The notes under the pieces: model-generated
Told to the model about the DNA's origin: nothing
Database searches by the model: none
What the model saw: the letters and a program-made list of their open reading frames with translations, nothing else
Shown here: positions 4,862-9,473 of the stretch, piece after piece
How positions within the stretch are numbered: the stretch's first letter is position 1
Layout of the letters: each line of letters opens with the position of its first letter
IMG/VR virus record: IMGVR_UViG_2703718801_000021
Span: 1-9,473 of that record
Length of the DNA stretch: 9,473 nt
DNA from: a virus
Lineage: Duplodnaviria; Heunggongvirae; Uroviricota; Caudoviricetes
Strand: one strand, 5' to 3'
Program-made: the position numbers and the translations under genes

Positions 4862-5245
4862 TTAGAAGGGAATTGAATCGTCGTATTCAGGATTATTTTG
4901 ATGATTGCTACTTTGCTGCTGTTGGCTGTTTCCTGAAGTTGCAAATCCAATCTTTGCATTCAGTAATTCAAGAGTGATTGATTGACCATTTTGCCCCTGA
5001 TAAACATCAACCCTGATGTTTTCTCCGGTAATTTCCACAATGCCACCTTCAACAAGAACACTACGGTAGTAATCCGCTTGCGCTCCCGGCTTGGCAAATA
5101 CAACGGCGCTGTAGTTTGTCCATTCTTTCTTTTTTGTCTGGCGATCGTAATACTGAACGCCAGCACGGATGTTGAATCCGATATTTTCCCCGGCCTGAAA
5201 CTCTCTTGCGGGCTTGTTTAGTCTTACAGTAATCGAATGTGCCAT
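4862..5245 (-). CDS. Short SSB-like protein (127 aa) carrying an SSB-type C-terminal tail (..NPEYDDSIPF)
   Basis: Internal ATG at 5245..5243 overlaps the erf TAA stop (TAATG). The C-terminus has a Gln/Asn/Ser-rich linker (SGNSQQQQSSNHQNN) followed by DDSIPF, which closely matches the bacterial SSB tail DDDIPF. Upstream AAGGAG is present. Confidence 0.6.
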   Translation of the reverse strand: MAHSITVRLNKPAREFQAGENIGFNIRAGVQYYDRQTKKKEWTNYSAVVFAKPGAQADYYRSVLVEGGIVEITGENIRVDVYQGQNGQSITLELLNAKIGFATSGNSQQQQSSNHQNNPEYDDSIPF

Positions 5246-5850
5246 TAAGCAGCCGCTCCTTCTAATTCGTCTCGTCTGATGTTGTAAACGTCCTGCGCTT
5301 TGTGCTGCTCCGGTGTGCCTTCGAGCATCTTCCACGCTTTGGCGAACGCCTGTTTAAGTTCTTCTACGGTGTTTTTCTGCATTGCTGCGTCAGTGAATGC
5401 TTTTAGAACCTGTTCAGGTGTAGGTGATGGTCTTGATTGCTTTGCTGCTGCGTTCTGCTGATGTTTATGCTCGTCTGTATCTGCATCTTTCGCATCATCA
5501 ATGCCGAACAAACCATTGAGGCAATACTTGCGTGCATAAGAGCTTGTAGCTCCCGTAACTTGTGCAGAATCCATTCCTTTCTTGCTTTCTTCCTCTCGTG
5601 CAAGAGCGGTTGCCGTATGACTGTTTTCGCCATCGGTAATAGTTGCCGTGGCTTTCACGTAATACCGATCACCAATCAACACAACTTCATCGCTGATTGA
5701 TAAAAACAGGCCATTCAGTAGCGGCTTAACGCCTTCAAGAATGTCTTCGCAGCTTCTGTATTTATATTTACCGAATGAGTTGTACTGATTCTTTGGCGCG
5801 TTCAGATTCTCCTGAATAGCTGCCAGTCTTGCGTAAAATTCTTTGCTCAT
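5245..5850 (-). CDS. erf: Erf-family single-strand annealing recombinase, 201 aa
   Basis: N-terminus MSKEFYARLAAIQENLNAPKNQYNSFGKYKYRSCEDILEGVKP.. matches what I recall of P22 Erf. The ORF track extends it upstream to a TTG at 5880; I use the ATG at 5850. Confidence 0.8.
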   Translation of the reverse strand: MSKEFYARLAAIQENLNAPKNQYNSFGKYKYRSCEDILEGVKPLLNGLFLSISDEVVLIGDRYYVKATATITDGENSHTATALAREEESKKGMDSAQVTGATSSYARKYCLNGLFGIDDAKDADTDEHKHQQNAAAKQSRPSPTPEQVLKAFTDAAMQKNTVEELKQAFAKAWKMLEGTPEQHKAQDVYNIRRDELEGAAA

Positions 5851-5939
5851 ATGATTGTTCTCAGAATGGACATGGCCCAAGTAAATAACGCTGATTTAAT
5901 ACTTCAGTCTTTGCCGCATTTAAAAATACGCGAACACCT

Positions 5940-6110
5940 TCACGATCTCCCTTTTGGCGATACATTAACGCCTGCTGCGTGTACATGCGTCTCTGTAACT
6001 TGCTCTCCTTCACTGTGGTTGCAAGTGACATGAATATCTCCTTCGTTACCGATTAATTCTTTCATCTGACGAATGAATTCTTCGTCTGACCAGTTATCTG
6101 TAAAACTCAT
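5940..6110 (-). CDS. Hypothetical small protein, 56 aa (MSFTDNWSDEEFIRQMKELIGNEGDIHVTCNHSEGEQ...); positional analogue of arf/gam slot
   Basis: ATG at 6110..6108 overlaps the TGA stop of the Kil-like ORF (ATGA) and follows AGGAA very closely. It lies between the kil-like gene and erf. No recognised family. Confidence 0.4.
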   Translation of the reverse strand: MSFTDNWSDEEFIRQMKELIGNEGDIHVTCNHSEGEQVTETHVHAAGVNVSPKGRS

Positions 6111-6229
6111 TTCCTGCGATACCACGGAAGGTTGATAGCTGATTTCATCGCTTTATTTGCTTCAAGCCACATTTTTGAATCACCAATAAATCTGGCTATT
6201 ACTGCTTTGTTCTGTGCAGCACGAAGCAT
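6107..6229 (-). CDS. kil: Kil-like small host-interfering peptide, 40 aa (MLRAAQNKAVIARFIGDSKMWLEANKAMKSAINLPWYRRK)
   Basis: Hand-translated; not in the ORF track. It starts 14 nt after the cIII-like stop, in the position kil occupies in lambda. The core ARFIGDSKMWLEA resembles lambda Kil as I recall it (..ATFIGDEKMFREA..); this is unverified. Confidence 0.45.
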   Translation of the reverse strand: MLRAAQNKAVIARFIGDSKMWLEANKAMKSAINLPWYRRK

Positions 6230-6243
6230 CTGGTGATTAATGG

Positions 6244-6378
6244 CTATTTCATTGCGCATAACGCCTCCAGTTGTTTCTTTGCTGCTCTGATTAATTGTTT
6301 AACTCGGCGTGATAATTCAGATTCGTGCGGGTAGAAAGCGGACATGACGCCGCTACCCGCGAACTGAAAGTGCATCAT
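6244..6378 (-). CDS. cIII: CIII-like protein (FtsH inhibitor / CII stabiliser), 44 aa
   Basis: Internal ATG at 6378 is preceded by AAGGAG with a 6-nt spacer. The protein MMHFQFAGSGVMSAFYPHESELSRRVKQLIRAAKKQLEALCAMK follows the pattern of lambda CIII (..IAGWPVAGCPSESLLERITRKLRDGWKRL.., from memory), including the amphipathic helix. Confidence 0.55.
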   Translation of the reverse strand: MMHFQFAGSGVMSAFYPHESELSRRVKQLIRAAKKQLEALCAMK

Positions 6379-6440
6379 GGGTAACTCCTTATATTTGATT
6401 GCATAACGAAAACGCCTCGAGTGAAGCGTTATTGGTATGC

Positions 6441-6468
6441 ATATAAAAAGGCCCTCATACTGGAGGGC
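6441..6468 (-). terminator. Rho-independent terminator-like hairpin inside the leftward operon (minus strand)
   Basis: Perfect 6-bp GC-rich stem GCCCTC / GAGGGC (6451-6468) with a 6-nt loop. On the minus strand it is followed immediately by CTTTTTTATAT. It lies between the membrane-protein gene and cIII. Confidence 0.5.
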
Positions 6469-6617
6469 AAAGAAGATTTCCAATAATCAGAACAAGTCGA
6501 CTCCTGTTTAGTTACGAGCGACATTGCTCCGTGTATTCACTCGTTGGAATGAATACACAGTGCAGTGTTTATTCTGTTGTTTATGCCAAAAATAAAGGAC
6601 GATTATGCGGCCTGAAA

Positions 6618-8042: not shown

Positions 8043-8072
8043 ATTGTTGTGTGTTTTAGAGTGGTGAGGCTG

Positions 8073-8768
8073 TTAACTAAATGTCTCTTCAGGCCACTGG
8101 CTGGCGATAACTTTCCCTACTACGGAACAGCTATCATTGCATGGAATCATTGGATATTGCGGGTTTAGTGGTTGTAGGAACACCTGACCGCTATCCCTGA
8201 TCAGTTTCTTGAAGGTAAACTCGTCACCACCAAGTCTGGCTATGCAGAAATCACCTGGCTCAACAGCCTGCTCAGGGTCAACGAGAATTAACATCCCGTC
8301 AGGAAAGCTTGGCTTGGATCCTGTTGGCGCGGTCATGGAATTACCTTCAACTTCAAGCCAAAACGCACAATCACTGGCTTTTTTGGTTGTGCTGACCCAT
8401 CTCTCCGCATCACCTTTGGTAAAGGTTCTAAGCTCAGGCGAGAACATACCGGCCTGAACATGAGAAAAAACAGGGTACTCATATTGTTTTTTAACGGGGG
8501 CAGATGAGTATTCGCCAACAGGTGAAAATGTACCGTCGTGGTTGAATGAGACGTTATCAATACCAAGGTATTTAAACACCACACCAATCTCGTCAAGAGA
8601 TGGATGACGAGATCCGCGCAACCAGTGACCAATTCCACCCTGCGTCATACCAAGCTCTTCGGCTAACTTCTCTTGAGTTATGCCGAGCTCTTTCATTCTG
8701 GATCTAGCCAGTTCATACCATTTCATTTTCATACCCTTATTATTACGCTCTGTACTAAAATCATCCAT
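8073..8768 (-). CDS. cI: CI-type phage repressor: N-terminal HTH (XRE-like) and C-terminal LexA/S24 autopeptidase domain
   Basis: HTH region [24 protein letters not shown]24-type features include an Ala-Gly site (HVQAGMF), the Ser nucleophile context (EVEGNSM) and a downstream Lys (TFKKL). It is divergent from cro. The ORF track starts at a TTG at 8774; I favour the ATG at 8768, which has no SD. Confidence 0.85.
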
Positions 8769-8788
8769 GCACAAGATGTATTTTTTGT

Positions 8789-8817
8789 TTGCATTCTAAA
8801 AGTACATATCGTATTAT
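8789..8817 (+). promoter_or_regulatory. PR-like promoter with an operator-like 16-mer in the spacer
   Basis: -35 TTGCAT (8789-8794), 17-nt spacer TCTAAAAGTACATATCG, -10 TATTAT (8812-8817), 26 nt upstream of the cro ATG. The 16-mer AAAGTACATATCGTAT (8799-8814) mirrors the PL copy. Confidence 0.55.
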
Positions 8818-8843
8818 TGCGTTATGGTTACTATGGAGGGCAT

Positions 8844-9059
8844 ATGAGCAACCTACGAAAATATCGAGAGTCACTGAATATCTCTCAAACAACACTTGCT
8901 AAGGCAGTTGGATGCACACAGGGAGCTATCGGACATTGGGAATCTGGTCGTCGCTTCCCAGACCTTAAAACATGCCGTGCTCTTGTTGCGTGCCTAAACA
9001 AGTTAGGCGCAAAAGTCAGTCTTGATGACGTGTTCCCGCCGGAACACAAAGCCGCTTAA
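8844..9059 (+). CDS. cro: Cro-like HTH regulator, 71 aa
   Basis: ATG at 8844 is preceded by GGAGGG with a 4-nt spacer. HTH segment ISQTTLAKAVGCTQGAIGHWESG. It is divergent from cI and followed by a nut-like site and cII. The ORF track's longer 8673 start is a GTG/TTG extension through the operator region. Confidence 0.8.
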   Translation: MSNLRKYRESLNISQTTLAKAVGCTQGAIGHWESGRRFPDLKTCRALVACLNKLGAKVSLDDVFPPEHKAA

Positions 9060-9069
9060 TAAGCGGATC

Positions 9070-9114
9070 CGCTCTTTGTAACAACGGACATTCGTCCTAC
9101 GTCGCTGAAAAGCG
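9070..9114 (+). promoter_or_regulatory. nutR-like site: boxA, spacer hairpin, boxB-like GAAA-loop hairpin
   Basis: CGCTCTTTGTAACAAC (boxA-like), then GGACattcGTCC, then TACG, then TCGCTgaaaAGCGA. The layout parallels the nutL-like element, with different but still complementary stem sequences. Confidence 0.6.
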
Positions 9115-9200
9115 AGTTCCAAGATATCTGACCAACTAAGGCCATATGCGTTTCCACGCATACCTTTCAACTAACTATTCACTACTGGAAATCTTAAGAA

Positions 9201-9473
9201 ATGGAACAAACAAGTTACAGCAAACTATCCCAGCGTGACGTTGATCGCGCAGAAACAGATTTACTCATCAACCTGTCAACGCTTACCCAGCGCGGTCTGG
9301 CAAAGATGATTGGCTGTCATGAATCGAAGATAAGCAGAACGGACTGGAGATTTATTGCTTCGGTCTTGTGTGCTTTCGGAATGGCATCAGACATCAGTCC
9401 GATTAGCAGGGCTTTTAAGTATGCGCTTGATGGACTCACCAATAAAAAACGCCCGGCGGCAACCGAGCGTTCT
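9201..9473 (+). CDS. cII: CII-like transcriptional activator, 5' partial (runs off the window end)
   Basis: Translation MEQTSYSKLSQRDVDRAETDLLINLSTLTQRGLAKMIGCHESKISRTDW...ALDGLTNKKRPAATERS has a C-terminal TNKKRPAATERS matching lambda CII (from memory), plus an HTH. There is no stop before position 9473. Confidence 0.85.
   Translation, partial: MEQTSYSKLSQRDVDRAETDLLINLSTLTQRGLAKMIGCHESKISRTDWRFIASVLCAFGMASDISPISRAFKYALDGLTNKKRPAATERS

Follow-up and report, generated by a model that had tools for sequence, protein, structure and literature searches.

Lambdoid phage genomes are mosaics, typically made of patches 90-100% identical between phages amid a diverged background (PMC2327257). According to the accepted account, they arise by recombination between prophages and phages, which combines homeologous exchange by phage recombinases with illegitimate events and is followed by selection; Red-type recombinases efficiently recombine diverged DNA, and a diverged 'shoulder' is found in about half of lambdoid mosaics (PMC2327257). 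Recombination modules are themselves shuffled among phages (PMC12315714). The HK97-type module consists of Abc2, SSB-1b and Erf, SSB-1b being the name of HK97 gp40, a protein whose fold, as predicted by AlphaFold 3, resembles that of a single-strand DNA-binding protein (SSB) (PMC12315714). Genes that depend on one another are transferred together, and kil travels with erf or recT (PMC9836094).

The subject here is a 9,473-nucleotide (nt) stretch of viral DNA (IMG/VR record IMGVR_UViG_2703718801_000021, positions 1 to 9,473), called the window throughout, which includes an Erf-type recombination module and the early genes around it. The window is very probably the left arm and early region of an Escherichia coli lambdoid prophage with canonical gene order, in which each position is occupied by one allele from the shared lambdoid pool and the patchwork was produced by recombination. 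An initial annotation, made from the sequence alone, had described the part at 5245-9473 as a recombinant lambdoid genome with lambda-like Ral and CII, a P22-type Erf and an SSB-tailed protein in place of Exo/Bet/Gam. The recombinant character is borne out and the mosaic pattern is more than chance. Mosaicism is real here; it is also a textbook property of lambdoid phages, and close relatives of every module of the window are found among deposited phages or genomes.

Mosaic map of the window

Genes were called from an open reading frame (ORF) scan of the window and from family searches against Pfam, PHROG and NCBIfam. Their order is int, xis, ea genes, recombination module, kil, cIII, ral, N, PL/OL, cI, OR, cro, nutR and cII. 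In two closed E. coli genomes, an identical int has yehW, yohO and mlrA as neighbours, and the prophage is therefore assigned to the mlrA (yehV) site.

Nucleotide identity was profiled in 150-bp bins by BLASTN against 12 references: lambda, P22, HK97, HK106, HK633, BP-4795, Stx2_EH2086, vB_EcoP-720R6, 2G7b and three E. coli prophages. Identity to each reference flips between 95-100% and undetectable at coordinates common to several references. The matching segments, with their nt identity, are as follows:

1-6110, OkiPb01680, 98%
17-3448, BP-4795, 99.8%
4528-6563, HK97, 96%
4528-7520, Stx2_EH2086, 99.6%, the phage having an additional ~1.3 kb at 6245
7108-9467, O111:H- 11128, 99.4%
7500-7910, 2G7b, ev017, PhiR11_1 and Nil2, 96-98% (2G7b and relatives 98%)
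exactly 7899-9059, vB_EcoP-720R6 (a P22-like podovirus), 98.45%
9069-9473, second match of Stx2_EH2086, 97.5%
6402-6598, 7097-7421, 8079-8483 and 9435-9473, lambda, in these four patches only

Lambda-like DNA thus totals about 925 of the 9,473 bases. P22 matches the window at the nt level in abc2, in ral, in the part of erf that codes for the N-terminal two-thirds and in a few short islands, and nowhere else. The segment at 7520-7899 carries the N type of 2G7b and Nil2, and that at 9069-9473 is an HK97-like nutR-cII segment. The junctions that recur among the references are located at:

3336-3456, within Ea22, in a conserved core
4096-4245, DUF2737 island
4528, immediately past the abc2 stop codon
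6110, start of kil
6385-6402, 6440/6441, about 6563, 6598/7108 and 7391-7421, between cIII and N
7520, inside N
7899, a short way downstream of PL
8079 and 8483, limits of the cI C-terminal domain
9059/9069, stop codon of cro

Several of these junctions coincide with boundaries of protein domains, namely those of Erf in comparison with P22, of CI in comparison with lambda and of the N C-terminus. A uniform match to a single phage was sought and none was found: no phage record covers at least 80% of the window or of 5245-9473, the best record reaching 49% and 58%, respectively. Among 5,426 E. coli genomes, three cover at least 80% of the window; 10 E. coli genomes cover at least 80% of 5245-9473, the best being OkiPb01684, with 100% coverage at 98.9% identity, interrupted by the insertion sequence (IS) IS4. 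An E. coli genome contains up to 12 places matching the window, and exchange partners are therefore ample.

Recombination module

By its gene content and order, the recombination module is of the HK97 type, comprising abc2, the SSB-like gp40 ('SSB-1b'), erf, kil and cIII. The genes of this part (4528-6563) are:

4542-4838, minus strand, abc2 (anti-RecBCD protein 2), PF11043, E=3.5e-62
4862-5245, minus strand, SSB-like protein of 127 amino acids (aa) with the acidic tail ...NPEYDDSIPF, phrog_44 'single strand DNA binding protein', E=1.9e-28
5245-5850, minus strand, erf, single-strand annealing protein, PF04404, E=3.4e-44, 150.9 bits against a cut-off of 25
5861-6031, minus strand, 56-aa ORF between erf and kil, phrog_1723, E=1e-32
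6107-6259, minus strand, kil (host division inhibitor), PF06301, E=1.7e-20
6244-6378, minus strand, cIII, PF08134, E=1.5e-29

The genes abc2, the SSB-like gene and erf are contiguous in the HK97 order, all on the minus strand, and collinear with HK97 at 96% nt identity. The left end of the module is at 4528, where the alignments of HK97, HK106, HK633, Stx2_EH2086, O111 and P22 all start. Abc2 has 96% aa identity to its HK97 counterpart and 94% to that of P22, the P22 gene being 89% identical at the nt level. The P22-type label given to Erf holds for the family (PF04404), but the nearest relative is the Erf of HK97 (200/201 aa, 99.5%), compared with 76% identity to P22 Erf. When aligned with P22 Erf, the N-terminal 130 aa are identical at 119 positions and the C-terminal 40 aa at 14; similarity to P22 in the gene is limited to 5374-5850 (79% nt), with an intragenic junction at about 5374, at the domain boundary. 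The divergent C-terminal domain adjoins the SSB-like gene. The identity to the HK97 and P22 proteins suggests that this Erf would form a ring oligomer, anneal single-stranded DNA (ssDNA) and act in recombination in vivo.

The SSB-tailed protein was correctly noticed beside erf. It is 95% identical to HK97 gp40 (120/126 aa) and is encoded at the position of P22 abc1, with no similarity to P22 Abc1. E. coli SSB ends in ...DDDIPF, and an acidic tail D-(D/x)-I-P-F is typical of bacterial SSB proteins; the C-terminus of the window protein, ...DDSIPF, is an acidic tail of the SSB type. In a comparison with the TIGR00621 ssb model, it scores 18.9 bits, below the cut-off of 53.95; it has no Pfam match, PF00436 included, at E<0.01, and its match to the SSB structure 7d8j of the PDB has E=0.06. 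Because the curated SSB sequence models are not matched, the protein is best filed as SSB-like with an SSB-type tail, not as a canonical SSB.

The 56-aa ORF shares 54% identity with the C-terminal end of HK97 gp41; it lies at the position of P22 arf, yet does not match P22 Arf. A tblastn search of the window (E<0.1) with lambda Exo, Bet, Gam, Ea10, SieB and RexAB and with P22 Abc1, Arf and gp17 found none of them, in agreement with the annotated lack of Exo/Bet/Gam, and lambda 31348-33232 has no nt match in the window. As members of their families, Abc2 would redirect RecBCD, Erf would anneal single strands and the SSB-like protein would coat ssDNA; the DDSIPF tail may imitate that of host SSB, to which partner proteins bind.

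Kil is identical to the HK97 protein (50/50 aa) and 54% identical to that of lambda; CIII matches HK97 at 43/44 aa and lambda at 33%. The alignments of OkiPb01680, 720R6 and O111 end at 6110 and restart at 6385. A module boundary had been placed at kil/erf: the recurrent junction at 6110 lies approximately there, though only in comparison with OkiPb01680, 720R6 and O111 11128, while in comparison with lambda the whole abc2-to-cIII block is foreign, lambda-like DNA being found from 6402. A second boundary, proposed at the ea region, can be refined to 4528, the edge of the module on the ea side, with the conserved island 4096-4245.

Regulatory genes and cargo cassettes

The other genes of the early left operon and the two nut sites are arranged as follows:

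7097-7421, minus strand, lambda-like patch with ral and orf28, 96.6% nt identical to lambda 34059-34381
7116-7137, minus strand, hairpin downstream of ral, -13.9 kcal/mol, z=-2.7
7126-7326, minus strand, ral, PF11058, E=9e-48, 160 bits, full-length
7310-7396, minus strand, orf28, 28/28 aa identical to lambda
7455-7727, minus strand, N antiterminator, 90 aa according to the RefSeq annotation of an identical protein, PF25694, E=5.8e-32
7826-7871, minus strand, nutL, with boxA GCTCTTTAA at 7871..7863 and boxB UGGCUGAAAAGCCA at 7839..7826, read from the sequence
9070-9115, plus strand, nutR, with boxA CGCTCTTTG at 9070-9078 and boxB UCGCUGAAAAGCGA at 9102-9115, read from the sequence

Ral is, as annotated, nearly identical to the lambda protein (65/66 aa), and 77% identical to that of P22 (84% nt). 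N is identical to a protein of O111 11128 and has aa identities of 59% to HK97 N, 45% to P22 gp24 and 43% to lambda N; an alternative in-frame ATG at 7799 would extend it to 114 aa. An intragenic junction lies at 7520. The C-terminal ~22 codons belong to the island 7391-7520, common to HK97, BP-4795 and HK106, and are the only part shared with HK97 N and P22 gp24; the arginine-rich N-terminal part, which contains MSRKTEFKGTAASRRRARRA, is of another type.

The boxB set of UGGCUGAAAAGCCA (nutL) and UCGCUGAAAAGCGA (nutR) is found in the window, OkiPb01684, 2G7b and O111; the set of GCGCUGACAAAGCGC and UCGCUGACAAAGCGA, with the loop GACAA, is found in HK97, HK106, BP-4795, Stx2_EH2086 and OkiPb01680. 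The type of the N N-terminus and both boxB loops (GAAA(A) versus GACAA) covary in all nine genomes compared. N, nutL and nutR thus appear to form a matched specificity set, which fits the co-transfer of interdependent genes (PMC9836094). The N-nutR pairing is kept though nutR lies past the separately exchangeable immunity cassette; in vB_EcoP-720R6, the immunity cassette is linked to a lambda-type nutR. The boxB elements of nutL and nutR have the same loop and stems that differ by a compensatory pair (GGC/GCC versus CGC/GCG), and a small extra hairpin is located between boxA and boxB at both sites.

The right end of the window contains two overlapping features:

9201-9473, plus strand, cII, truncated by the window end, PF05269 (Phage_CII), E=3.7e-34, 117 bits
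9446-9473, minus strand, oop terminator, a strong terminator-like hairpin; the homologous stretch is annotated oop in HK633

The lambda-like C-terminus ascribed to CII is present, as the 13 residues encoded at the window end (LTNKKRPAATERS; 39 nt, 9435-9473) are 100% identical to lambda, but CII as a whole is 89% identical to HK97 and 43% to lambda. Since the opposite strand of the tail is a terminator hairpin, annotated oop in HK633, the lambda-identical tail reflects the antisense oop RNA and not a lambda-type CII allele. An Rfam search of the whole window (E<=1) found no family; oop is truncated at the window end.

In the immunity cassette (7899-9059), OL, cI, OR and cro travel as one block:

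7946..7941 (-35) and 7923..7918 (-10), minus strand, PL, promoter prediction
7920-7934 and 7945-7959, candidate OL sites, pattern AGTACN5GTACT
8015-8050, minus strand, empty cargo slot between cI and PL, matching lambda 35799-35834, just downstream of rexB
8021-8042, minus strand, cI terminator
8073-8768, minus strand, cI, HTH_3 and Peptidase_S24 domains
8742-8756 and 8801-8815, candidate OR sites, pattern AGTACN5GTACT
8788-8817, PR
8844-9059, plus strand, cro, HTH_3

Four of the six matches to AGTACN5GTACT in the window lie inside this cassette, overlapping PL and PR. The repressor has the helix-turn-helix and Peptidase_S24 domains of a CI-type protein and is divergent from cro across the candidate operators. 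Its C-terminal domain is nearly that of lambda CI (121/124 aa), in contrast to the N-terminal, DNA-binding domain (31/94 aa). With the RefSeq-style start of cI (ATG 8768), the candidate operator 8742-8756 falls within the gene. ATG 8732 or 8726 (MKMKWYEL...) may be the true start and would better fit a lambda-like arrangement, in which OR3/PRM lies directly upstream of cI. The cI-PL slot contains rexAB, higBA, hicAB or gp48/49 in other phages; in OkiPb01684, it holds IS4 with the window bases 8026-8037 on both sides, consistent with a 12-bp target-site duplication. The same prophage carries IS100 at window position ~4482-4486.

Between cIII and ral, a lambda-like backbone is followed by a cassette coding for a membrane protein:

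6402-6598, minus strand, lambda-like intergenic backbone of about 200 bp, 97.5% identical to lambda over 6402-6440 and 96% over 6441-6598
6599-7107, minus strand, orf149 cassette of 509 bp, with the coding sequence at 6618-7067 for a 149-aa protein with two predicted membrane helices

The backbone contains two tandem terminator-like hairpins, 6411-6430 and 6451-6468 (fold of 6400-6475, z=-4.8), and three adjacent cassette slots with junction coordinates common to HK97, BP-4795, 2G7b and O111. The ea10 slot (6440/6441), occupied in lambda, BP-4795 and 2G7b, is empty, the ~400-bp ea10 interval of lambda being missing in the window; the gp45-type slot (about 6563), occupied in HK97, BP-4795 and O111, is empty as well; the third slot, at 6598, is filled by orf149. 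This cassette is bracketed by an exact 12-bp direct repeat, CAAAAATAAAGG, at 6587-6598 and 7108-7119. In lambda, HK106, 2G7b and O111 11128, the 12-mer occurs once, uninterrupted, which represents the empty site; it constitutes the foot and T-tract of the hairpin downstream of ral. The cassette most likely arose by microhomology-mediated insertion, as judged from this repeat. A transposon was considered as a source of the repeat and rejected, there being no transposase and no inverted ends.

The orf149 protein belongs to phrog_3054 ('unknown', E=5e-64) and has no Pfam, NCBIfam or PADLOC match. Its homologues (516 hits in Enterobacteriaceae) are strongly conserved and near-constant in length. 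The gene moves between prophage slots as a minimal cassette that lacks a promoter: in Pantoea stewartii prophages it occupies another slot, directly behind the lysis genes, and in Kluyvera it follows N, in the same region as here. An AlphaFold2 model from a 24-sequence alignment has two long helices and is weak (predicted local distance difference test, pLDDT, 65.7; predicted template modelling score, pTM, 0.47), and a Foldseek search of this weak model against BFVD gave no match at E<=0.001. No promoter-like site is present in the ~40 nt upstream of orf149, and no terminator at the distal end of the cassette (fold z=0.06). A classical, self-contained moron was rejected for orf149, which has neither its own promoter nor its own terminator and is, for this reason, probably expressed from PL. 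An early-expressed phage function, uncharacterised so far, such as superinfection exclusion or interference with the host envelope, is a tentative and rather doubtful proposal; nothing supports a specific activity, and an envelope or exclusion role is a guess. The initial annotation had expected novel cargo at module boundaries. This holds weakly: several slots are variable and one is filled, by orf149, the sole uncharacterised cargo within 5245-9473, while the cI-PL slot is empty.

Around its translation start (AGGTGATATATGGAAGAA, MEE...; 7056-7076), orf149 is nearly the same as orf28 (7385-7405) in ribosome-binding site and first codons, with 19/19 nt shared with the start of lambda orf28 and 90% identity to the orf28 copy of the window. 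Two unrelated cassettes, orf149 and orf28, therefore share a translation-start 'linker'.

HK97 resembles the window in the cI C-terminal domain (94% nt identity) and in the collinear early-left region (abc2, gp40, erf, gp41/42, kil, cIII). It differs in its lambda-type int and xis, in the lack of the DUF5405 cassette, ral and orf28, in gp45 in place of orf149, in gp48/49 between cI and PL, in an N N-terminus of other type with GACAA-loop boxB and in its immunity specificity. OkiPb01684 occupies the same mlrA site and shares the whole of 5245-9473; however, it has the IS100 and IS4 interruptions and diverges in 2185-3341. OkiPb01680 differs in its kil region, in the type of N and in the immunity region, and carries HigBA. 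O111:H- 11128 also carries the Erf module, but with a gp45-like gene instead of orf149 and another kil region. Lambda shares the canonical gene order, the identical oop terminator and CII tail and the backbone 6402-6598 (96-98%); its Int is 34% identical in a partial alignment, Cro is unrelated and the operators differ, and the window lacks the exo, bet, gam, ea10, sieB and rexAB of lambda. With P22, the window shares the abc2 and erf families with their order, and ral, which P22 has as well; it differs in the SSB-like gene replacing abc1, the lack of arf and in the kil, c3, gene 24 and immunity regions. The Stx1 phage BP-4795 shares int, xis and ea genes (17-3448), but has Exo/Bet/Gam and HigBA. 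The Stx2a phage Stx2_EH2086 differs in integrase, N type and immunity region, in addition to its extra sequence at 6245.

The left part of the window, apart from these modules, includes:

75-1361, minus strand, int, family search
1395-1649, minus strand, xis, family search
between xis and abc2, minus strand, ea-type run of DUF4222, DUF551, two Ea22-like, DUF2737 and DUF5405 genes, family search

The stretch 1651-1950 (300 bp; a small ORF and the DUF4222 gene) is 79% identical to both Okinawa prophages and 99-100% identical to BP-4795, and represents a small replacement patch inside an int-xis-ea block otherwise 97-100% identical. The first Ea22-like protein (2922-3635) has an N-terminal part corresponding to Pfam Ead_Ea22; residues 126-224, in the C-terminal part, match the PADLOC model 'DpdH' (E=1.6e-36), perhaps because the two have a domain in common, or because the model in the defence database was derived from a prophage gene. 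The DUF5405 gene (4246-4527) is a presence/absence cassette with the DUF2737 island (4096-4245) on one side and abc2 on the other; HK97 fuses both flanks directly, with a 5-bp overlap.

Origin of the patchwork

The patchwork would have built up as co-resident lambdoid prophages and infecting phages recombined time and again, for the most part probably by homologous or homeologous exchange inside short conserved islands flanking variable cassettes. The proposed exchange islands are 3336-3456, 4096-4245, 6402-6598, 7391-7520, 8079-8483 and 9069-9473. Further pieces would now and then have been added by microhomology-mediated insertion, for which the orf149 cassette and the 12-bp direct repeat around it are the example, and selection would then retain only functionally coherent combinations. 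The pattern seen in the comparisons agrees with the accepted account of how lambdoid phages evolve.

A direct hybrid of lambda and P22, with a lambda backbone and a P22 recombination module, could account for the near-identity of Ral and orf28 to lambda, for Erf and Abc2 of P22 families and for the nt similarity to P22 in abc2 (89%) and in the part of erf for the N-terminal domain (79%). However, the lambda-like DNA amounts to the four small patches, Erf is far closer to HK97 than to P22, the SSB-like gene replaces abc1 and arf is missing; for Kil, CIII, N, Cro, CII and the N-terminal domain of CI, the window has the version of neither phage. P22 itself has erf and ral, so their pairing alone is no sign of hybridity. 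The segment map rejects such a hybrid, which is regarded as extremely improbable. An assembly artefact, in which reads of several similar prophages were merged at shared repeats, is just as improbable. The up to 12 matching places per E. coli genome would favour it, as would the position of junctions in conserved islands, where assemblers can switch copies. But independent closed RefSeq genomes, 97-100% identical to the window, span all of its junctions (OkiPb01680 over 1-6110, OkiPb01684 over 4482-8037 and 8026-9473, O111 11128 over 7108-9467; the overlaps leave no junction uncovered), which argues against an assembly chimera, and the gene order is complete and functionally coherent.

In the Hendrix model, recombination is mainly illegitimate (non-homologous or microhomology-mediated), occurs at random points and is followed by selection. 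It finds support in the orf149 cassette, bounded by only 12 bp of identity, and in the junctions 7520, 7899 and 9059, which pass from high identity directly to undetectable similarity and have no diverged shoulder; about half of lambdoid mosaics lack shoulders (PMC2327257). On the other hand, many cassettes are bracketed by islands 90-98% conserved in nearly all references (3336-3456, 4096-4245, 6451-6563, 7391-7520), and the same junctions recur in unrelated phages, a better fit to exchange at shared sequence. Mainly illegitimate recombination is therefore considered unlikely, if a good deal less so than a hybrid or an artefact; the two mechanisms are not mutually exclusive.

Some points weigh against the preferred reading of recombination among lambdoid phages with exchange inside conserved islands. 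The recombination events are deduced by comparison, not observed. The junction coordinates depend on the 12 references chosen and on the ends of BLAST alignments. The protein functions are predicted, and the SSB-like protein misses the cut-off of the curated SSB model. In 6% of Markov simulations, a 1.2-kb segment of this composition contains an exact 12-mer repeat; the weight of the repeat at orf149 comes from its placement exactly at both ends of the collinearity break, not from the repeat alone.

With respect to annotation, the labels are corrected as follows: the module is of HK97 type, CII resembles that of HK97 and the tail identical to lambda CII represents the oop terminator. Beyond annotation, the significance is small, apart from flagging a conserved membrane protein, orf149, as cargo. 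For lambdoid phages, the window is a clean example of mosaicism, with cassette slots separated by conserved linker islands; it illustrates junctions at domain boundaries (Erf, CI, N) and the inheritance, as a matched set, of interacting parts split by another module (N with nutL and nutR).

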